Below are positions 1 through 15,592 of a stretch of DNA of 32,000 nt, in pieces; the first letter of the stretch is position 1; each line of letters begins with the position of its first letter. This DNA comes from Microcystis aeruginosa NIES-843 (lineage in GTDB: Bacteria > Cyanobacteriota > Cyanobacteriia > Cyanobacteriales > Microcystaceae): assembly GCF_000010625.1 (NCBI RefSeq), contig NC_010296.1, forward strand, positions 3,630,001-3,662,000, read 5' to 3'. Below the pieces are notes generated by a model. That model did not search any database. It worked only from the letters and a program-made list of their open reading frames with translations, and was not told where the DNA came from. Position numbers and translations under genes: made by a program.

Positions 1-68
1 GATTCGTAGAGTTTTTGCCCTCGCTCGGCTAACTCATCTTTGGGATAACGCCGTTGACGAACTGCCAT
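1..68 (-). CDS. First 22 codons of a third copy of the 91-aa partner-protein family; the gene continues past the left window edge
   Basis: Minus strand from ATG 68..66 reads MAVRQRRYPKDELAERGQKLYES, colinear with MTVRQPRYSKEEFARRGDEIYES of 2423..2698. The same GAGGTCAA SD-like block lies 4 nt upstream in both. Confidence 0.6.
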   Translation of the reverse strand, partial: MAVRQRRYPKDELAERGQKLYE

Positions 69-202
69 CTGGTTGACCTCAACTCAGTATTTTGCCTTAA
101 TTATACTTTGAGTTATTCTAACGAAGTGCTCCCGCTCTACTACTGATGAGCCGCCTCATCGCAAGCCCCCCAGTGGTGCACTTCAAATTTGAATCGGCGC
201 TT

Positions 203-291
203 CAATCAAGGTGCATGGTGCGTTCCCCAAAAATCGATCGCTGGAGCAGTAGGAGCCACATGAGGGAACGTACCCTACAAGATCGGCGATC
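203..291. repeat. Copy 1 of a ~90-bp palindromic repeat (core GTGCATGGTGCGTTCCCCAAAAATCGATCGCTGGAGCAGTAGGAGCCACAT.AGGGAACGCACCCTACAAGATCGGCGATC)
   Basis: Near-identical copies at 979..1071, 2842..2977, 4864..5000 and 5186..5274. Internal inverted repeat GTGCGTTCCC / GGGAACGCAC. Coordinates approximate. Confidence 0.85.
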
Positions 292-646
292 TCACCGTTA
301 AGTCTCTCATTCTAATTTTGTCTTCTTCAATAACTGTAAAGTGTCCATACCAGTCATCCCGCAATGAGATAACCTTGGCAACTTTCTCAGCGACTACAGA
401 TGCAGAAGGTACTCTTATTCTAAACAAAATAATACCAACACTGGCCGGCAACCTTGAACGAAAGGCGAGTTATCCAAAATCTTGATCAAATGTCAAGAGA
501 ATACGATTTTCTGCTTGGGCGCGACTTAAAACTTCACGGTCCGAGATTCCGGGGGATTCCACCCTAATCCACAGGACATCATGGCCATTTTGTCGTAGGG
601 CTTCAACCGCATCAAGGGGGAAATTTTCGTTCGCTAGAAAACGCAT
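275..646 (-). pseudogene. DUF5615-like (PIN-like) toxin partner of DUF433, interrupted by an in-frame TAA
   Basis: ATG 646..644 lies 3 nt after the DUF433 stop. It reads MRFLANENFPLDAVEALRQNGHDVLWIRVESPGISDREVLSRAQAENRILLTFDQDFG, then TAA (472..470), then LAFRSRLPASVGIILFRIRVPSASVVAEKVAKVISLRDDWYGHFTVIEEDKIRMRD in the same frame. The last codons and the stop lie inside repeat copy 1. Confidence 0.7.
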
Positions 647-649
647 CAG

Positions 650-880
650 TTAAGCAGGAATAGCATAGACTTTCTCAGATTTGAGCATTACACTAGCATA
701 GCTAAGACAAGCTTGAATATCTTCTACTGTAATACCTGGGTAGTTTCGCAGAATTTCATCAATACTCCAACCTTGGGCGAGAAGATCGATGATAAATTCA
801 ACCGCAATCCTTGTTCCTTTAATGATAGGTTTTCCCACCAAAATATCGGGATTTAGTGTAATTCGAGTTTCCCAGTCCAT
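650..880 (-). CDS. DUF433 domain protein (antitoxin-like)
   Basis: From ATG 880..878: MDWETRITLNPDILVGKPIIKGTRIAVEFIIDLLAQGWSIDEILRNYPGITVEDIQACLSYA, a typical DUF433 pattern. The longer ORF-track start (1006) lies inside repeat copy 2. Confidence 0.8.
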   Translation of the reverse strand: MDWETRITLNPDILVGKPIIKGTRIAVEFIIDLLAQGWSIDEILRNYPGITVEDIQACLSYASVMLKSEKVYAIPA

Positions 881-978
881 AGCTACATCATTGAAAGTGT
901 TTTCAAAAAGGTAAAGGCTGCGTGGGACGCACCCTACAATATCTCGTTTTATTATAACAGGATTTGGTATCACAACTT

Positions 979-1071
979 CAATCAATGTGCATGGTGCGTT
1001 CCCCAAAAATCGATCGGTGGAGCAGTGGGAGCCACATTAGGGAACGCACCCTACGAGATCGGCGATCGCAC
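979..1071. repeat. Copy 2 of the ~90-bp palindromic repeat
   Basis: Aligns by eye with 203..291. It supplies the last ~7 codons and the stop of the DUF2442 ORF. Confidence 0.85.
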
Positions 1072-1365
1072 TCGATTATTTAACCAACGCTTCAAGGATT
1101 TTTGACTTTCCCCTGATGGTTGGCCAAGAATCAAGTTTTTAGTGCTAATGTCTTCATCTAGTTGATTCCAATGGATTCCACTGCCACCAGCGATCAAGCG
1201 ATAATCATTGCGCTCCTCAATTGAGCCATGCAGGAGCCGAGGATACCATGCCAGGGGAACAGATATAGTGCGCCCATCAGACAAATCTACACTGAGTGTG
1301 TCATCTGTGATGGCCAATTGCTGAATAGCCAATGTTTCAAATACTTCATTCGTTAAAAAAGTCAT
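1051..1365 (-). CDS. DUF2442 domain protein
   Basis: LSVDLSDGRTISVPLAWYPRLLHGSIEERNDYRLIAGGSGIHWNQLDEDIS matches the DUF2442 pattern. It overlaps the upstream DUF4160 gene by 20 nt. Confidence 0.75.
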   Translation of the reverse strand: MTFLTNEVFETLAIQQLAITDDTLSVDLSDGRTISVPLAWYPRLLHGSIEERNDYRLIAGGSGIHWNQLDEDISTKNLILGQPSGESQKSLKRWLNNRVRSPIS

Positions 1366-1583
1366 TCCAGCCTGCTAGTAATTGTTCTTGGTTTTCTTGA
1401 ACAAGTTTTTGAATGCGGTTAATTTCGGTGCGGTTAAATCCTTGGTTACTCTGAAGACGAAGCGGCTGAAGCCAGAATTTAGCGATCTCTCGATCTCGTT
1501 CAACATGGATGTGAGGTGGCTCCGAAGCGATCGCCTGCGTAGCAAAAGAATCGATATGGGCCAACGGTCAACAGCGTGGGCAT
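1346..1583 (-). pseudogene. DUF4160 domain protein with a 1-nt frameshift
   Basis: ATG 1583..1581 opens MPTLLTVGPYRFFCYAGDR (canonical DUF4160 N-terminus). The rest, SEPPHIHVERDREIAKFWLQPLRLQSNQGFNRTEINRIQKLVQENQEQLLAGWNDFF, is in another frame. The switch lies near 1520..1535 (GATCGCTTCGGAGCC). The ORF-track start at 1564 is a TTG. Confidence 0.65.
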
Positions 1584-1673
1584 TCAAAAGTTTTGCTCTA
1601 AATATCTCAAACATAGCTGAATGCCTCGCTGACTGTCAATCTGTGAATATGCTCATGTAGGCCAAAGGCTATT

Positions 1674-1887
1674 TAGGGTCTGCTGAAAAAGTTTTTCGTG
1701 GGGACAGGGTGTGGGAACAGGGTGTGGGGTGTGGGTTTTTACCGATTCTCATCTGGTCAATTACCTAATTTTCAGAGAAAAAGTACCTGAATTTTCCCCG
1801 ATCTCTCCCAGAACTGGTACTTTTTGATTTCCAAAAGGTCTAAAAGTCTTATCCAACAAAGTTTTTAGATTTATTCAGCAAACCCTA
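1674..1887. mobile_element. MITE with terminal inverted repeats TAGGGTCTGCTGAAAAAG / TTTATTCAGCAAACCCTA and an internal G-rich heptamer tract
   Basis: Same element in inverted orientation at 18717..18931. TIR shared with 11273..11489. Confidence 0.8.
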
Positions 1888-1937
1888 TTTAAGGTTAAGA
1901 ACAATACAAGATTAGCGTTCGCAGTTTAGTTCCGAAG

Positions 1938-2010
1938 GTGTTGGATTTCTTTTCGTCAACCCAAGCTACAAGATCAGCGATCTGCTACGCAGTGCCTTCG
2001 GCATCGCACT
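1938..2010. repeat. Composite repeat: hairpin unit (TTGGATTTCTTTTCGTCAACCCAAGCTACA) plus CTGCTACGCAGTGCCTTCGGCATCGCACT unit
   Basis: The hairpin unit recurs at 2790..2824 and, inverted and partial, at 31979..32000. The second unit recurs at 2951..2979 and 4864..4893. Confidence 0.7.
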
Positions 2011-2045
2011 AACGTTCCTGTTAGACCGTGTCTGACGATCAGCTT

Positions 2046-2426
2046 CTAAACTGCGATCGGTAACTCCGAAATCGTAACCAATCCGCCTTTGACTGTATCG
2101 ACTTGCAACCGATAACCGCGCAACAGGCTCATTCCAATCAATGGCTCTGTCTCTGCAGCGTTAATCTCGATTTCTCGATACTGCCCACCCCAAATCACCA
2201 TGCCATCATAGATATCAAATAAGACTTCGCTACCATCGCCCAAGGTTGCCCGATCGCGGTAACTCCAAGACAGTTCAAGTTCTCTAATAGTAGCAATCGG
2301 GAGACTCAAGAACCCTGTAAACCCTGTATCGATCACAGCAGTAATGGATTTAAGTTTGTCGCCGTTCCTCACAACCAAGGAAAGCATTGCTTCGTAATTC
2401 TGATTGACGTAACCCTGCATCATCAT
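2046..2426 (-). CDS. Retropepsin-like (clan AA) aspartyl protease, ~126 aa
   Basis: D-T-G active-site motif in AVIDTGFTGFLSLP. The start is an ATGATGATG run at 2426..2418 that overlaps the TGA (2425..2423) of the upstream gene. The ORF-track start at 2492 would overlap the partner gene by 70 nt. Confidence 0.75.
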   Translation of the reverse strand: MMMQGYVNQNYEAMLSLVVRNGDKLKSITAVIDTGFTGFLSLPIATIRELELSWSYRDRATLGDGSEVLFDIYDGMVIWGGQYREIEINAAETEPLIGMSLLRGYRLQVDTVKGGLVTISELPIAV

Positions 2427-2698
2427 AGAGCGTCTTTCAAACTCCGTGCGCCGAAACGATGAACGGCGCGATAGCCGATCCGAACAACCCAAGGCTGAGC
2501 ATCAGGCAATCGTTCATAAAGTCGCCGAGTCGCAGTCATCGTATCGTCAGCAAGCTCAAACGCTCCAGTTTCGATGTCGATCGCCACAATTCTGCCATGA
2601 TTACCTTCCTCAATTTGGGGGCGCACCTGAGATTCATAAATCTCATCGCCACGTCGGGCAAACTCTTCTTTGCTGTAGCGGGGTTGTCGAACTGTCAT
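2423..2698 (-). CDS. 91-aa conserved partner protein of the aspartyl protease, function unknown (possibly DUF5678-like)
   Basis: Intact ORF with paralogs at 4480..4755 and 1..68, an SD-like GAGGTCAA block, and translational coupling to the protease. Confidence 0.7.
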   Translation of the reverse strand: MTVRQPRYSKEEFARRGDEIYESQVRPQIEEGNHGRIVAIDIETGAFELADDTMTATRRLYERLPDAQPWVVRIGYRAVHRFGARSLKDAL

Positions 2699-2789
2699 AG
2701 ATTTGACCTCTTTTCAACTATGCCCCTTCATTTTACCCTGAGCAATGGAGGTGTCTATCGTTGAGGTGGCGGAGGGGATTAAACTAGAA

Positions 2790-2977
2790 GTTGTTGGGTT
2801 TCCTTTTGTCAACCCAGCCTACATCTGACTTTAACTTGCACTAGGGAACGCACTTAAACCCACAGTAAATGTGCATGGTGCGTTCCCCAAAAATCGATCG
2901 CTGGAGCAGTAAGAGCCACATCAGGGAACGCACCCTACAAGATCGGCGTGCTGCTACGCAGTGCCTTCGGCATCGCA
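2790..2977. repeat. Repeat cluster: hairpin unit (2790..2824) plus copy 3 of the palindromic repeat and the CTGCTACGCAGTGCCTTCGGCATCGCAC unit (2842..2977)
   Basis: Aligned by eye with the copies at 203, 979, 4864 and 5186. Confidence 0.8.
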
Positions 2978-3040
2978 CTACAAATCATCAATCGTTACCA
3001 ACCCACCTTCCGTAAACTGAATCACAAGTTCATGGCTATC
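2978..3040 (-). pseudogene. Detached 3' end of the IS630-interrupted aspartyl protease gene
   Basis: Minus strand reads DSHELVIQFTEGGLVTIDDL-stop (TAG at 2980..2978), colinear with RGYRLQVDTVKGGLVTISEL of the intact paralog. It joins in frame to 4183..4483 once the IS is removed. Confidence 0.8.
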
Positions 3041-4182
3041 TATACTTTGCACGGCTACAACTTGCATTTTTTACTCAAGGACAATAATATAGTTTAAGAG
3101 TCATAATTAGAAGCAAAGCACTCATTAAAAACATGATTAACCTAGAATTCACGGAAGAAGAAAAGAACTCACTGTCTTAGGAAAGATTTCATCATCCCCA
3201 TCCCCGGGTTCAACTGAAGATGGAAGTTCTCTGGTTAAAGAGCCAAAAGATACCGCACCAAAAAATTTGTCAGTTAGCAGGAATCTCGCCAAATACCTTA
3301 TTAACCTATCTTCGAGATTATGAAGAAGGCGGAATAGAAAAATTAAAACAAATCAACTTCTATCGCCCTAAAAGTGAATTAGAGTCTCAAAAAGAAACGC
3401 TCAAAAAATACTTCGAGAAAAATCCACCAGCCACAATAAATGAAGCTGTATATAGGAGAGAAGAATTAACGGGAATAAAACGAAGTCCTACCCAAGTTAG
3501 AAAATTTTTAAAATCAATGGGAATGAAATGTTTAAAAGTAGGTTCTCTTCCTTCTAAAGCTGACCGGGATGAACAAGAGGACTACAAAGAAAAAAAGCTA
3601 GAACCCAGACTAAATGAGGCTAAAGAAGGAAAAAGGGCTGTTTTTTTTGTTGATGCCGCTCACTTCGTCATGGGAGCATTTCTCGGTTTTATTTGGTGTT
3701 TTGAGAGACTTTTTGTTAAGTCACCGAGCGGGCGTAAACGCTTCAATGTTTTAGGAGCATTAAATGCAATAACTCATGAAGTTATTCTGGTTACGAATGA
3801 CACTTATATTACAGCAACTCAAGTCTGTGAACTCCGGTCAAAAATAGCTGCTTTAGGAATAACTATTCCCATCACTCTAGTCTTAGATAATGCCCGCTAT
3901 CAAAAATGTAAAATTGTTGAAGAATTGGCTCTTTCTTTGTCAATAGAGCTACTCTATTTGCCGTCTTATTCGCCTAATCTAAATTTAATTGAAAGGCTGT
4001 GGAAATTTGTCAAAAAGAAATGTTTGTATGGTAAATACTATGAAAACTTTTCTGACTTTTCTTCAGCTATTTATGAATGTCTGAATGATGCCCACCTGAA
4101 ACATAAAAAAGAACTGGATTCCTTGCTCACTCTACGATTTCAGAAGTTTAATAAATCTCAGATTATGAACGTCTAAAGTATA
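3041..4182 (+). mobile_element. IS630-family insertion sequence flanked by a duplicated TA
   Basis: TA at 3041..3042 and 4181..4182. Imperfect TIRs TACTTTGCACGGCTACAA (left) and TACTTTAGACGTTCATAA (right, reverse complement). Single DDE transposase inside; about 1.14 kb. Confidence 0.85.
3220..4176 (+). CDS. IS630-family DDE transposase (DD34E)
   Basis: Motifs DAAHFV, LDNARYQ and, 34 residues later, NLIERLW. An in-frame upstream segment from ATG 3133 (MINLEFTEEEKNSLS) is cut by TAG at 3178..3180, so this ORF lacks the first 29 codons of the family N-terminus. Confidence 0.85.
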   Translation: MEVLWLKSQKIPHQKICQLAGISPNTLLTYLRDYEEGGIEKLKQINFYRPKSELESQKETLKKYFEKNPPATINEAVYRREELTGIKRSPTQVRKFLKSMGMKCLKVGSLPSKADRDEQEDYKEKKLEPRLNEAKEGKRAVFFVDAAHFVMGAFLGFIWCFERLFVKSPSGRKRFNVLGALNAITHEVILVTNDTYITATQVCELRSKIAALGITIPITLVLDNARYQKCKIVEELALSLSIELLYLPSYSPNLNLIERLWKFVKKKCLYGKYYENFSDFSSAIYECLNDAHLKHKKELDSLLTLRFQKFNKSQIMNV

Positions 4183-4483
4183 ATAAAGCAGTTCCAACCA
4201 GGGGTCGCCGCCCTGTGGCAAATACACGAGTTTCTCGCTCCTCACCATTCCAGATAATAATTGCTTTGTGAAGAGGCAGCATTACTTGGCTGTTGTCTGC
4301 TAAATTCGCACGCATATCGTACCTGAAAGGAAGATTCAGTAATGCTACTGCTTCGGGTGGTAAACAAAGCTCATCTGTAAATCCTGTATCTACTACAAAC
4401 TCAATCGGAAAGTCAGCGCGATTTGGAATCCGAAATGGGATAGTGATAAGCGGGTGTCCATTAGCCACAATACCTGAAATCAC
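4183..4483 (-). pseudogene. 5' part of a retropepsin-like aspartyl protease truncated by the IS630 insertion
   Basis: FVVDTGFTDELCLP carries the D-T-G motif. After ...GTALL the ORF reads into the IS end (YFRRS-stop at 4165..4163). Its start overlaps the stop of 4480..4755 (ATGA type). Confidence 0.8.
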
Positions 4484-4755
4484 TTAACTACACGCTCCAT
4501 AACACCCCCACCAAAAGCGGCAGCAACGTTGTAGCCAATTTTGATCCCAAAGAGCCGAGCATGGGGGTGTTTCTCGCTCAATAAGTCAGCAGCGTGTAAG
4601 CCATTTTCATCAACTTTGTAGTCACCTGTTTCAATGTCAATGATAACCATCTTGCCAATGTTTTCTTCAACTTCCACCTCTTGGCGGATTCTGCTTTCGT
4701 ACAGTTTCTCTGCACGTTGAGCAACTTCTTCACGGCTTAAAAGGATTGCTTGCAT
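4480..4755 (-). CDS. 91-aa partner protein, paralog of 2423..2698
   Basis: MQAILLSREEVAQRAEKLYESRIRQEVE...VIIDIETGDY...IKIGY is colinear with the 2423..2698 product. GGAG lies 8 nt upstream of the ATG. Confidence 0.7.
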   Translation of the reverse strand: MQAILLSREEVAQRAEKLYESRIRQEVEVEENIGKMVIIDIETGDYKVDENGLHAADLLSEKHPHARLFGIKIGYNVAAAFGGGVMERVVK

Positions 4756-4863
4756 ATACTAACTCCTGATTACGATTTGACTTCTGGAGACCCCTCTATA
4801 ATATCTCACAGGTCTGTAGGATGAGCTAATGCCCATCCTACTAAGTCTCTATAAGATTGGTGT

Positions 4864-5000
4864 ACTGCTACGCAGTGCCTTCGGCATCGCACTTAAACCC
4901 ACAGCTGCAATCAATGTGCATGGTGCGTTCCCCAAAAATCGATCGCTGGAGCAGTAGGAGTCACATTAGGGAACGCACCCTACAAGATCGGCGATCGCAC
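4864..5000. repeat. Copy 4 of the palindromic repeat, preceded by the CTGCTACGCAGTGCCTTCGGCATCGCACT unit
   Basis: Aligned by eye with the other copies. Module order is swapped relative to 2842..2977. Confidence 0.85.
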
Positions 5001-5185: not shown

Positions 5186-5274
5186 AATGTGCATGGTACG
5201 TTCCCCAAAAATCGATCGCTGGAGCAGTAGGAGCCACATTAGGGAACGCACCCTACAAGATCAGCGATCGCACT
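5186..5274. repeat. Copy 5 of the palindromic repeat
   Basis: Aligned by eye. The ORF-track ORF 5187..5423 (+) starts inside it. Confidence 0.85.
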
Positions 5275-5362: not shown

Positions 5363-5596
5363 TTATGGAGTATTTAAGGCTTCAATAATTCCCGTTATAA
5401 CACAATTAAGAGGGACGTTTTGAAAAGTAGAAGGTAGCTGTTTAATGACATCTGGGTTACTAACATAAATATTAATAACACCATCACCAATTCCTACCCC
5501 TTCAATTCCTGCAATTTGCTGATATTCTTTTTTAACAGCCTTTTTGACAGTCGCTAAATCAGGTTTGCTTTGGGACAATTCTTGATGAGAATTCAT
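5363..5596 (-). CDS. 77-aa protein resembling the N-terminal pro-region of the adjacent serine protease
   Basis: ATG 5596..5594 is preceded by AAGGAG at 9 nt. IEGVGIGDGVINIYVSNPDVIKQLPSTFQNVPL parallels VGVGYGVKISGDTVIDDLALRVYVRSKLPKSQIP of 5627..6592. It lies 30 nt downstream of the protease stop. Confidence 0.6.
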   Translation of the reverse strand: MNSHQELSQSKPDLATVKKAVKKEYQQIAGIEGVGIGDGVINIYVSNPDVIKQLPSTFQNVPLNCVITGIIEALNTP

Positions 5597-5626
5597 AATT
5601 ACCCTCTCCTTGATCACTCTTTACCT

Positions 5627-6592
5627 TTACAGTATATCAATATCAAACCGAGACAGCACTTTATCAATGGGACAAGCAAAGGTTTGATTTCCGCCTCCTG
5701 CAAATAATAATCCCACAGGACGACGAGTCATCGCATCAACAATTAAAGAACCTGAATCTCCTCCTTGACTAAACAAACCATTAACCCCTTGAATGGCTAA
5801 TTGATCTTCAAAATTAGCGATTTTTTGACCAAAGCGGACTCGAACATCTGCCGCAATGTCCATTATTACACCTATTGTGTGTCCTGTTGTACGTCCATGT
5901 TTACGAACAGATTGATATAAAGCAGATGTCATCGGAGGTTGTTGCACATTGCCAATGGTTAGAATACTAGGTCTGACATCATTATTGTTAATAACCTTGG
6001 CGATCGCGGCGTCAATAAAGTTAGGCTTATCATCTAAAAAAATGGTTTCAAAGTCTGTTAATTTAGCAATTGGTTCAGTTCCTTGATCCAATTTACCAGG
6101 TTCAATAATATTATCATCAATTTGAGCTTGATTAGAATCAGCTAAAACGTGATTATTAGAGAGAATAAAGATTTCATTATCATCTCCTGCTGTTTTTTTA
6201 ACTAAGCAGCCTAATGTTCCTGCTGTAATATTAAAATGTCCCACAGAAGTCCCACATTCAACAGGTCTAGCTAAAGCACTTAAGTCATAAACGGGAATTA
6301 CATCGGTGAGTTTACCATTAATTTCTTCAGGAACTTGTTCATTATTAGGAATTTGACTTTTGGGTAATTTAGAACGAACGTAAACTCTTAAAGCAAGATC
6401 ATCAATAACAGTATCTCCTGAAATTTTTACCCCATAACCTACACCAACAATATTGCTATTATTGGGTATTCCACTTAGTAGAGAAGCCCCTACTATTTGA
6501 GGGAACGCACCAAAAATTCTTACTAAAAACTCACCCTTAAAGTTCTTAGCATCTTGTAATAATTCAGGGGTTGGAACTAGACGACTACTCAT
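5627..6592 (-). CDS. Chymotrypsin-fold (S1-like, alpha-lytic/Nal1-like) serine protease, 321 aa
   Basis: Catalytic order H-D-S: SNNHVLAD (H148), FIDAAIAKV (D194), GGDSGSLIV (S280); also GRTTGHTIG. AAGGAG lies upstream of the ATG. No obvious signal peptide. Confidence 0.75.
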   Translation of the reverse strand: MSSRLVPTPELLQDAKNFKGEFLVRIFGAFPQIVGASLLSGIPNNSNIVGVGYGVKISGDTVIDDLALRVYVRSKLPKSQIPNNEQVPEEINGKLTDVIPVYDLSALARPVECGTSVGHFNITAGTLGCLVKKTAGDDNEIFILSNNHVLADSNQAQIDDNIIEPGKLDQGTEPIAKLTDFETIFLDDKPNFIDAAIAKVINNNDVRPSILTIGNVQQPPMTSALYQSVRKHGRTTGHTIGVIMDIAADVRVRFGQKIANFEDQLAIQGVNGLFSQGGDSGSLIVDAMTRRPVGLLFAGGGNQTFACPIDKVLSRFDIDIL

Positions 6593-13397: not shown

Positions 13398-13683
13398 GAA
13401 AATTGGCGGAGTTTAGGATAACAATCGATCGATTGTCTCACAGACGGCAGCGATCGGGAAAGTCAGCCGGGGTTTTTTTGAGTTAGTCGAGGGTAAATGA
13501 TAAATAATCATTATGACTATCCAGTTCTGTGCCAAAACTAGATATTATTTCTTTGGTCGATATTTTTTTCTATTCCTTGTCCTACTGTCTCTTAACCCTA
13601 TCTAAGTTTTACTGGCAATTATTCGAGAGTCATTCTCTAACAATTATCTCAAATATAAGCAAATCTTGCCGATACAAAAAACC

Positions 13684-14964
13684 ATGAGAATTAAGTCTAT
13701 AAAGCTTGATAATTATCGAGGTGTAGTTAGTTTAAACATCGACTTTCATCGTCAATTAAACGTATTTATAGGAGTTAATGGTGCTGGAAAATCCACCATT
13801 TTAGATAGTTTGGCGATTATGCTTTCATGGTTAGTTAATCGCCTAAAAAATACTAATGCCAGTGGACGAAAGATTAGCGAAACCGAGATTAATAATGGTC
13901 AGGGTACGGCTATAATTGAAATCACTGGGTTGACGGAAGATAGTCAAGAGATTACTTGGAAAATAGTAAAAACTAGGACTGGATATATCCACGCTGGAGA
14001 ACGGAGTAATTTTAGCCAATTAAATGAATACACTCAACAAATACAACGACAAATTACTGAACATCAAGGACAAATTAACTTACCTTTATTTGTTTATTAT
14101 TCTGTTAATCGAGCAGTGGTAGATATACCCTTAAAAATTAAAACAAAACATCAATTTGATTCTCTAAGTGCCTACGAAAATGCTTTAACCAGTGGATCAG
14201 ATTTTCGCACTTTTTTTGAATGGTTTCGCGAGCGCGAAGATTTAGAAAATGAAAATAGAAAATATCAGGATTATCTAATTAAACCAGAAGGTTTTTGTTT
14301 TCCCGATCCCCAATTGGAAGCAGTTCGGGAAACGATCGAACGTTTTCTACCCGATTTTACTAATCTTAGCGTCCGTCGTAATCCCTTGAGAATGGAAGTA
14401 ACAAAAAAGAATGAAATAGTTACTGTTAATCAACTTTCTGATGGAGAAAAATGTCTGATTGCTATGCTGGGAGATTTAGCTCGAAGAATGGCGATTGCTA
14501 ATCCTCAAAATCCTGATCCCTTAACGGGTAATGGTGTTATTATCATTGACGAAATTGACTTACATTTACATCCTCAATGGCAAAGATTTGTAGTACCTAA
14601 ATTACTAGAAGTTTTTCCTAACTGTCATTTTTTTATTTCCACCCATTCTCCTAATATTATCACTCATGTTCAACCAGAAAGTTTACACTTCATGGAACAA
14701 ACAGAAATGGGAATAAAAGTTCATACCGTGCAAGAGTCCTACGGCAAAAATGTTGATCGAATTTTAGAAGATTTGATGGGATTAGAGACAACTCGTCCCA
14801 AGGAAATCGCTGAAGCTTTGAAAGATATCTATGAACAAATATCTCAAAATCAATTAGAGGCAGCTAAAAATAAAATCAATGATCTCAGAGCTAAAATTCA
14901 AGATGATCCAGAATTAATTAAAGCTGAAGTTATTATTCGACGCAAGGAAATTATCGGAAAATGA
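13684..14964 (+). CDS. ABC/SMC-like AAA ATPase, PtuA-like (Septu-type)
   Basis: MRIKSIKLDNYRG N-terminus, Walker A GVNGAGKST, LSDGEK signature-like motif, Walker B VIIIDEIDLHLHP, STHSP. The ATG at 13684 is preferred over the TTG at 13666. Confidence 0.75.
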   Translation: MRIKSIKLDNYRGVVSLNIDFHRQLNVFIGVNGAGKSTILDSLAIMLSWLVNRLKNTNASGRKISETEINNGQGTAIIEITGLTEDSQEITWKIVKTRTGYIHAGERSNFSQLNEYTQQIQRQITEHQGQINLPLFVYYSVNRAVVDIPLKIKTKHQFDSLSAYENALTSGSDFRTFFEWFREREDLENENRKYQDYLIKPEGFCFPDPQLEAVRETIERFLPDFTNLSVRRNPLRMEVTKKNEIVTVNQLSDGEKCLIAMLGDLARRMAIANPQNPDPLTGNGVIIIDEIDLHLHPQWQRFVVPKLLEVFPNCHFFISTHSPNIITHVQPESLHFMEQTEMGIKVHTVQESYGKNVDRILEDLMGLETTRPKEIAEALKDIYEQISQNQLEAAKNKINDLRAKIQDDPELIKAEVIIRRKEIIGK

Positions 14965-15004
14965 AGTATATTAGAAAAAGACAAGAACCACCAGAGTTTA
15001 AGAA

Positions 15005-15592
15005 TTGGAAAGAGCAAGCTACTCAGATTGGCAGCCCGACTTTAGAAATTTAGGGGGAAAACTAAAAGAAATACTAATTAAAGCGTTGATGACAGAACAG
15101 GGGGAAATATGTTGTTATTGTGAAAGTCGATTGGTTTATGGTGAATGCCATATAGAACATTTTAAACCTCAGAGTGATCCCACTGTTGATCCCTTAGATT
15201 ATGCCAATTTGCTATGTTCCTGTCAGGCAAATCTTACGCCTAGTGAACCTCGGCACTGTGGTAATCTAAAAAATAACTGGTTTGATGAAAATCTCTTAAT
15301 CTCTCCACTTAATCCCGATTGTGAGTCTCACTTTGCCTTTAACTATGATGGTACAATTAAACCCGCACAAGAAGATGATCAAAAAGCAATTAATACTATC
15401 GAAAAGTTGGGATTAAACCTCAATAAACTCAAGGCACTTCGTAAGGCAGCCATCGATCCTTTTTTGGATGAGGAGATAGATAATGCTCAATTAAAAGTTT
15501 TTGTCAATGGATATTTATGCTTAGATGATCAACAAAGATACACTCCTTTCTGGACAACAATCAAATATCTGTTCAGCGATTTAATTGAATAA
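15005..15592 (+). CDS. HNH endonuclease, PtuB/TIGR02646-like; the N-terminus appears frameshifted
   Basis: CCYCESRL...CHIEHFKPQS...HCGNLKNNW HNH motifs. The longest ORF starts at a TTG. A 30-codon ORF from ATG 14961 (ATGA overlap with the upstream stop) encodes the expected N-terminus MKYIRKRQEPPEFKNWKEQA in another frame. Confidence 0.7.
   Translation: MERASYSDWQPDFRNLGGKLKEILIKALMTEQGEICCYCESRLVYGECHIEHFKPQSDPTVDPLDYANLLCSCQANLTPSEPRHCGNLKNNWFDENLLISPLNPDCESHFAFNYDGTIKPAQEDDQKAINTIEKLGLNLNKLKALRKAAIDPFLDEEIDNAQLKVFVNGYLCLDDQQRYTPFWTTIKYLFSDLIE

Follow-up and report, generated by a model that had tools for sequence, protein, structure and literature searches.

We analysed a 32,000-nucleotide stretch of the genome of the bloom-forming cyanobacterium Microcystis aeruginosa NIES-843 (NC_010296.1, positions 3,630,001 to 3,662,000; hereafter the window), the first 4,755 nucleotides of which carry three minus-strand cassettes, each specifying a 91-residue protein (hereafter the partner) and then a retropepsin-like protease of 120-126 residues. 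The comparative results reveal that the cassette is a conserved, autonomous two-gene unit. The anatomy and coupling of its genes, the fold and catalytic motif of the protease, and the pair's conservation, mobility and unequal decay are direct observations, the best explanation for which is that the cassette is horizontally mobile and of the toxin-antitoxin (TA) or defence kind. More specifically, we give an even chance to the proposal that it is a TA-like module, with the retropepsin as the effector and the co-translated partner as its inhibitor. A shade less probable is the broader proposal that it represents a new and widespread TA or abortive-infection family, comprising a cytoplasmic retropepsin-like toxin and a co-translated 91-residue inhibitor of undescribed fold.

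Conservation and anatomy of the cassette

Loci were sampled in two ways, i.e. starting from the partner (80 loci from GTDB species genomes, containing 87 partner genes) and starting from the protease (80 metagenome loci). In the partner-first sample, a protease homologue lies directly downstream of 73 of the 87 partner genes, with the overlap being exactly 4 nucleotides (ATGA) in 66 of these 73 pairs; in the protease-first sample, 80 of the 81 full-length proteases have a partner directly upstream. The same arrangement is present on contigs of 64-66% GC content and in metagenome-assembled genomes (MAGs) of Chloroflexota. The co-occurrence census proposed in the original prediction, which had been made from the window sequence only, hence finds the two genes to be conserved as neighbours outside this genome, at approximately 150 loci in Cyanobacteria and Chloroflexota.

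Within the window, copy 1 is intact, with its partner gene (91 residues) at 2423..2698 and its retropepsin-like protease gene (126 residues) at 2046..2426, both on the minus strand. The sequence ATGATGATG at 2426..2418 spans the junction, where the partner stop codon (TGA, 2425..2423) forms part of an ATGA at 2426..2423 that provides the first ATG of the protease. The copy 1 protein has a match of 100% identity on a MAG contig, and its flanks are common to complete Microcystis genomes. Copy 2, likewise on the minus strand, has an intact 91-residue partner (4480..4755), and its protease gene is split into a 5' part (4183..4483; residues 1 to ~101), which has a GTG start and a GTGA overlap, and a 3' part (2978..3040), comprising the last ~20 codons and the stop. 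The intervening 1140-bp insertion sequence (IS; 3041..4182, plus strand) belongs to the IS630 family, with a transposase at 3220..4176 that scores 194 bits against NF033545 (transpos_IS630), 13-nucleotide inverted repeats at its ends (3041-3053 and 4170-4182) and a TA target duplication. When 1140 bp are excised, such that a single TA remains, 4183 becomes joined to 3040 and this recovers a 120-residue open reading frame (ORF) ending in ...LVIQFTEGGLVTIDDL, which has 99% identity to an uninterrupted 121-residue gene of Microcystis strain L168. Copy 3 is cut by the edge of the window, such that the first 22 codons of its partner are present (1..68, minus strand; translation MAVRQRRYPKDELAERGQKLYE). 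These are 59% identical to the copy 1 partner and match, at 100% identity, the beginning of a full cassette (91 and 122 residues) that occupies the same position, adjoining DUF433/DUF5615, in strains L165, L167 and L170. The paralogs in the window are 39% (partners) and 36% (proteases) identical, and no further cassette copy was found in the other 27 kb.

These results bear out the original prediction with respect to the coordinates and minus-strand location of all three copies, the precedence of the small protein (as seen from the coordinates of copies 1 and 2), the splitting of copy 2 by an IS (from the transposase match, the inverted repeats and the ORF restored on excision) and the considerable divergence of the paralogs at the protein level. 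The predicted start/stop overlap is present in both complete copies, and is of the ATGA type in copy 1, but not in copy 2, for which ATGA had also been proposed and where the GTG at 4483 yields GTGA.

The cassette is also conserved in the non-coding region that precedes it. In 88 cassettes, the ATG is preceded at ~36-41 nucleotides by a -10 box (TAAAAT) with 93-98% conservation, and between the two lies a conserved leader, GTTGAAacGAGGTCAAacc. The GAGGTCAA block ahead of the ATG in copies 1 and 3, correctly noted at the outset as a Shine-Dalgarno block common to two copies, is thus part of a family-wide leader. In copy 1, the promoter-like site and leader occupy 2699..2757 (minus strand), with a promoter scan identifying TAGACA-16-TAAAAT at 2757..2730 and the Shine-Dalgarno block lying within the conserved leader. 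The copy 3 leader and -10 box (69..108, minus strand) comprise TATAAT at ~105..100 and a GTTGAGGTCAAC leader with a Shine-Dalgarno sequence, which fits the family upstream consensus, and the copy 2 leader (4756..4805, minus strand) has an AGGAG Shine-Dalgarno sequence and a -10-like TATTAT at ~4803..4798. Cross-genus conservation of a non-coding leader is unusual, and may reflect a role as an operator or translational element. A candidate leader hairpin or operator (GTTGA...TCAAC) was rejected, as inverted repeats were barely above shuffled controls (mean arm 5.6 versus 5.1); by eye, no clear palindrome or covariation was seen in the leader, the 5' arm of which varies without compensation.

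The protease and its partner

The HMM check that the original prediction called for identifies both window proteases as members of TIGR03698 (clan AA aspartic protease), with scores of 59.8 bits for protease 1 and 70.3 bits for the 5' part of protease 2, compared with the NCBIfam curated cut-off of 57.35 bits; Microcystis orthologues carry the PGAP label 'clan AA aspartic protease'. A Pfam search with the window proteases gave no match at E<=0.1. The catalytic motifs are IDTGFTG and VDTGFTD, as previously read, with the DTG of protease 1 at residues 33-35. The DTG is invariant in two sets of full-length relatives (64/64 and 81/81). Other conserved elements in these are LGDGS, which is probably the flap, PL(I/V)GM and the strands at either terminus, which form the dimer sheet in retropepsins.

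A profile of the protease gave no match to PDB sequences at E<=1, and only a fold search succeeded. The AlphaFold2 (AF2) model of the protease (pLDDT 72) best matches the RVP domain of Ddi1 (7d66; E=2e-4, TM 0.56) and also matches the EIAV, HTLV, XMRV and HIV proteases as well as Rickettsia APRc (PDB 5c9b); as modeled, the fold is that of a retropepsin. The presence of a single DTG per chain, together with the conserved N- and C-terminal strands, suggests a homodimer with one active site. Reading of the protease sequence by eye, without use of a predictor, revealed no signal peptide or membrane segment. The ratios of nonsynonymous to synonymous substitution rates (dN/dS), ~0.10 and 0.11 for the two genes of the cassette, reveal that both are under purifying selection.

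The partner has no significant match in Pfam, NCBIfam, PADLOC or PHROGs; searches of PDB sequences with two profiles gave chance matches only and Foldseek found no matching PDB structure (best E=1.3). The family is nonetheless large, with 5236 homologues at 90% clustering and 3307 clusters at 50% identity, and its clusters occur in Cyanobacteria, Chloroflexota and other high-GC bacteria. The AF2 model of the partner (pLDDT 78) comprises a long N-terminal helix, a strand-strand-helix-strand arrangement and a low-confidence tail. The most conserved segments, i.e. residues 4-17 and 73-87, are those where model confidence is low, as expected if they fold on binding. The original prediction described the partner as DUF5678-like, and the top match of the model in BFVD is indeed a DUF5678 protein (probability 0.96, E=0.12, TM 0.49-0.53, rmsd 2.4 Å over 60 columns). 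In Pfam, one of 40 diverse family members matches DUF5678 (PF18929) weakly (E=0.086), but below the gathering threshold of that family; the two window partners have no match to it at E<=0.1 and none of the 40 members has a significant one. The relationship is thus at best a weak resemblance, and not membership.

In some homologues (P0128, P0141, P0142, P0150, P0166/P0392) the partner domain occurs two or three times in tandem, with low-complexity linkers between the copies. At locus L172 (3001-3780) a triple partner is followed by a protease with a 4-nucleotide overlap, and at L171 (3001-3603) a stand-alone double partner lies within a type I restriction-modification operon, with another cassette downstream of it. 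These two- and threefold fusions suggest that the partner is a dimer, in keeping with a dimeric enzyme. Natural fusions of the partner with the protease were not found among the long representatives, which are either partner-partner tandems or have unrelated extensions. The divergence of the partner correlates with that of the protease (r=0.70), lending weak support to an interaction. The JGI name 'peptide subunit release factor RF-3', which is given to the 91-residue homologues P0065, P0095 and P0107, is almost certainly a mis-annotation.

Asymmetric decay and genomic setting

The two genes of the cassette decay unequally. In the partner-first sample, the protease is absent or broken beside 17 of the 84 assessable intact partners (11 true orphans and 6 with a truncated or frameshifted protease), whereas in the protease-first sample an intact protease accompanies a defective partner in only 3 of 81 cases (L126 and L130, which represent one lineage, and L138; Fisher p=0.0014). 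A similar pattern is seen at close range within Microcystis, eight assemblies of which share partner 1 at 100% identity; five of these have a 1-bp deletion in protease 1 and a sixth has a different 1-bp insertion. Partner 2 has exact protein matches (100% identity) in strains L166 and L168, and is unaltered at both loci with a disrupted protease 2, i.e. in the window, where the disruption is due to IS630, and in L166, where it is due to a different IS. The tally for Microcystis is four independent protease knock-outs and zero partner knock-outs, which on target size alone has p ~0.11 (0.58^4), so that the knock-outs are suggestive only when combined with the census. At one locus (L036, 3382-4110), an orphan partner is followed, ~100 nucleotides downstream, by a 242-residue ORF whose N terminus appears caspase-like by eye; this may reflect chance or a swapped effector.

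The flanks of the cassette are hypervariable, with no flanking family being present in more than 7 of the 160 loci. The recurrent families are PIN, Uma2, DUF29, DUF5615, UPF0175 and a second aspartic protease, and other neighbours include type I or type IIG restriction-modification genes and Fic. In Microcystis, the cassettes lie in a strain-variable island downstream of a conserved DEAD/RecQ-like helicase, with PIN, Phd/YefM, UPF0175/DUF3368, DUF433/DUF5615 and DUF4160/DUF2442 genes and one to three cassettes making up its content. Many genomes contain several cassettes, often clustered (L007, L028, L034, L052, L056, L172), and the cassette is present on ten cyanobacterial plasmids, including pCC7120alpha of Nostoc PCC 7120, where the pair (WP_044523651.1 and WP_010999818.1) has a 4-nucleotide overlap.

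A second kind of cassette, in which a 72-98-residue ORF overlaps a 137-141-residue Asp_protease_2 (DTGAS) gene, lies less than 3 kb from the first in 5-7 of the 160 loci. Examples are at L081 (3490-4120), L052 (1907-2532), L105 (1228-1873) and, on the minus strand, L162 (1510-2191) and L155 (1288-1969). That its 72-residue partner is related to the 91-residue family was considered and rejected (hhalign probability 0.1). The association of an unrelated partner with a second retropepsin-like family fits the partner-effector shuffling that is typical of TA modules.

With respect to the surroundings of the cassettes in the window, domain matches substantiate the DUF433/DUF5615 and DUF2442/DUF4160 pairs that had been proposed from the sequence, and a fivefold repeat resembles the proposed miniature inverted-repeat transposable elements (MITEs). 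The DUF433 gene (within 650..1006, minus strand) is intact; the PIN-like DUF5615 gene (284..646, minus strand) has a premature stop at codon 59 and is 97% identical, over its full length, to a 121-residue gene of strain L165. With DUF5615 broken and DUF433 kept, this is the second case in the island of a broken putative toxin with a retained partner. The other pair consists of DUF4160 (1346..1564) and DUF2442 (1051..1365), also on the minus strand. The MITE-like repeat (core ATGGTGCGTTCCCCAAAAATCGATCG) occurs at 215-240, 991-1016, 2875-2900, 4920-4945 and 5193-5218, in each case on the plus strand. It is confined to the initial 5.3 kb of the window, and its expected number by chance is zero.

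Two further gene pairs in the window merit mention. At 5363..6592 (minus strand), on the island edge, a 321-residue Nal1_C (serine-protease-like) protein is followed, 10 nucleotides downstream, by an 84-residue ORF without a family match, making another pairing of a protease with a small protein. At 13666..15592 (plus strand), a 432-residue AAA_21/AAA_15/AAA_23 ATPase (AbiEii-like P-loop) precedes a 195-residue ORF without a Pfam match; the two may constitute a two-gene defence system.

Interpretation and comparison with known systems

From the comparative results we infer toxicity, direct binding, a mode of inhibition and a trigger, as follows. The cassette's own promoter (-10 TAAAAT) and short conserved leader would drive a bicistronic mRNA from which the 91-residue partner is translated first, with the ATGA overlap coupling translation of the protease to it. 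The effector would be the protease, acting as a cytoplasmic single-domain retropepsin that homodimerizes, with the DTG loops of the two chains together making up one active site. The partner, itself probably dimeric, would bind via its conserved, predicted-disordered N- and C-terminal segments, and may suppress protease activity in one of two ways, by filling the substrate cleft or by obstructing the N/C-terminal dimer sheet. On loss or titration of the partner, the freed protease would cleave cellular or invader proteins, such that growth stops.

The hallmarks of TA or addiction modules to which the original prediction appealed hold in the wider sample, i.e. a conserved pair, tight coupling, multiple copies and residence on plasmids and in TA- or restriction-modification-rich contexts, and to these can be added the persistence of the partner while the protease decays. 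Several findings, however, weigh against a TA-like module. Pfam and NCBIfam reveal no HTH, RHH, AbrB or Phd domain in the partner, and no known antitoxin fold was found in it by Pfam or a PDB fold search. The partner is better conserved than the protease (mean identity 72% versus 58%), being the more similar of the two in 94% of pairs; the usual type II pattern is the reverse. When the decay comparison is restricted to true orphans (11/84 versus 3/81), its significance becomes marginal (p=0.048). Intact 126-residue proteases that retain DTGFT occur where the upstream partner is deleted or fragmentary (L126, 2504-2884; L130, 1824-2398), and at L138 the partner is frameshifted; these three cases imply that the protease need not be lethal on its own, unless paralogous partners make good the loss in trans or the loss of coupling silences the protease. 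The cassette also lacks relatives in 2.9 million viral contigs (IMG/VR), 50,697 phage genomes and PHROGs, and none of the four cassette proteins has a match in PADLOC-DB v2 at E<=0.1. The comparative hallmarks thus stand, with the lack of a recognizable DNA-binding domain, the higher conservation of the partner and the proteases without partners at L126 and L130 to be set against them.

The partner might, alternatively, be a dedicated substrate, with the retropepsin cleaving it and either the product or the act of cleavage being the output; the tandem partners would then constitute a small polyprotein. Such an arrangement has precedents, in that ImmA cleaves ImmR, SpoIIGA processes pro-sigma-E encoded by the same operon and retroviral protease cuts Gag. 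It would account for the strict adjacency and co-translation of the two genes, for the partner's conserved and predicted-flexible N- and C-terminal segments, which could be cleavage sites, for the occurrence of two or three partner repeats with low-complexity linkers ahead of a protease, and for the high conservation of the partner, as befits a protein with a function of its own. We consider a substrate role unlikely because stand-alone substrates should decay, yet 11 orphan partners are intact and partners remain 100% identical beside four independently broken proteases; the hypervariable, TA-rich and plasmid-borne contexts and the multi-copy state would also be left unexplained. Slightly less likely again is non-toxic accessory proteolysis, in which a benign cytoplasmic protease has a dispensable stress or regulatory role and requires the partner for its assembly, for its activation or as an adaptor. 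The near absence of proteases without partners, the purifying selection on both genes, the toleration by one lineage of an intact protease without its partner and the lack of a recognizable DNA-binding domain for autoregulation are all consistent with such a role, but a cofactor without an independent role should be lost with its protease, whereas the partners outlive the proteases, and a single genome does not usually have multiple diverged copies of a housekeeping module, located in variable islands and on plasmids.

That the cassette is a remnant of a mobile element or virus, i.e. a gag-like protein and a protease derived from a retroelement or prophage and without a cellular function, is in our view very improbable. 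The retropepsin fold, with retroviral proteases among the best structural matches, and the IS- and MITE-rich surroundings are what such an origin would predict; the viral and phage collections, however, contain no relatives, no reverse transcriptase or integrase is linked to the pair in the surveyed flanks, both genes have a dN/dS of ~0.1 and the DTG is invariant, and the unit has its own conserved promoter.

Whichever of these explanations applies, the results reveal that one big branch of the prokaryotic single-domain retropepsins is almost always tied to a dedicated small partner, within a mobile and self-promoted cassette. If the proposal of a TA-like module is correct, the protease would represent the first class of aspartic-protease toxins and a new enzymatic class in the TA/defence repertoire, the partner would be a natural protein inhibitor of a retroviral-type protease that is open to structural study, and part of the very large 'hypothetical' complement of TA islands in bloom-forming Microcystis would be accounted for. 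The pair on plasmid alpha of Nostoc/Anabaena PCC 7120 provides a genetically tractable case.

The closest organizational parallels are with type II TA systems, including VapBC, Phd/YefM-linked modules and the predicted DUF433/DUF5615 and DUF4160/DUF2442 pairs. Like these, the cassette comprises two small co-directional genes with the putative neutralizer first, has a 4-nucleotide start/stop overlap and its own promoter, is multi-copy and occurs both on plasmids and in variable islands, with other TA genes and restriction-modification genes as neighbours; in both kinds of system, the first gene is commonly seen as an orphan and inactivation of the second is frequent. It differs in having a clan AA aspartic protease as its putative effector and in the nature of its first protein, in which no known antitoxin or DNA-binding fold is recognized and the conservation of which exceeds that of the effector. 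To our knowledge, no toxin of the aspartic protease class has been characterized. Aspartic (or aspartyl) proteases and retropepsins go unmentioned in the TA survey of Makarova (2009). The same survey proposed modules of a COG2856 (ImmA/IrrE) Zn-protease with Xre to be TA-like, with the protease cleaving its partner, and these resemble the cassette in being two-gene mobile modules of a small protease and a small partner. The enzyme there is, however, a metalloprotease rather than an aspartic protease and its partner an HTH repressor, whereas no HTH was found in the partner here; gene order and fusions also differ.

With respect to the protease, we know of no function assigned to the large family of TIGR03698/COG5550 single-domain retropepsins. 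The cassette enzyme shares a single domain of ~120 residues and a DTGF motif with TIGR03698 clan_AA_DTGF proteins (AF_0612-type; COG5550-type 'pSNCAPs', PMC2642776). Little was known about prokaryotic single-domain proteases at the time of the clan AA survey (2009, PMC2642776). What the cassette adds to this family is a near-obligate upstream partner, which is undescribed in the literature that we found. With Rickettsia APRc (5c9b), the RVP domain of Ddi1 and the retroviral proteases, the modeled cassette protease shares the fold, the catalytic DTG and an expected homodimeric active site. Caulobacter PerP, Bacillus SpoIIGA and the Pseudomonas Rlo enzymes are also characterized retropepsin-like proteases. 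Those bacterial enzymes are membrane-bound, secreted or contained in larger proteins and are not known to have a dedicated small partner gene, in contrast to the bare ~125-residue domain of the cassette protease. Small proteins with retropepsin domains were found near type III systems in Sulfolobales in a 2014 CRISPR survey, a neighbourhood that hints at a link to defence.

We found no literature that ties retropepsins to TA systems or that names TIGR03698, in agreement with the original prediction that no experimentally characterized TA family with a retropepsin-like toxin is known, although our search was incomplete and a prior description is possible. Set beside these known systems, the cassette would constitute a TA-like module with both a new class of effector and an undescribed partner.

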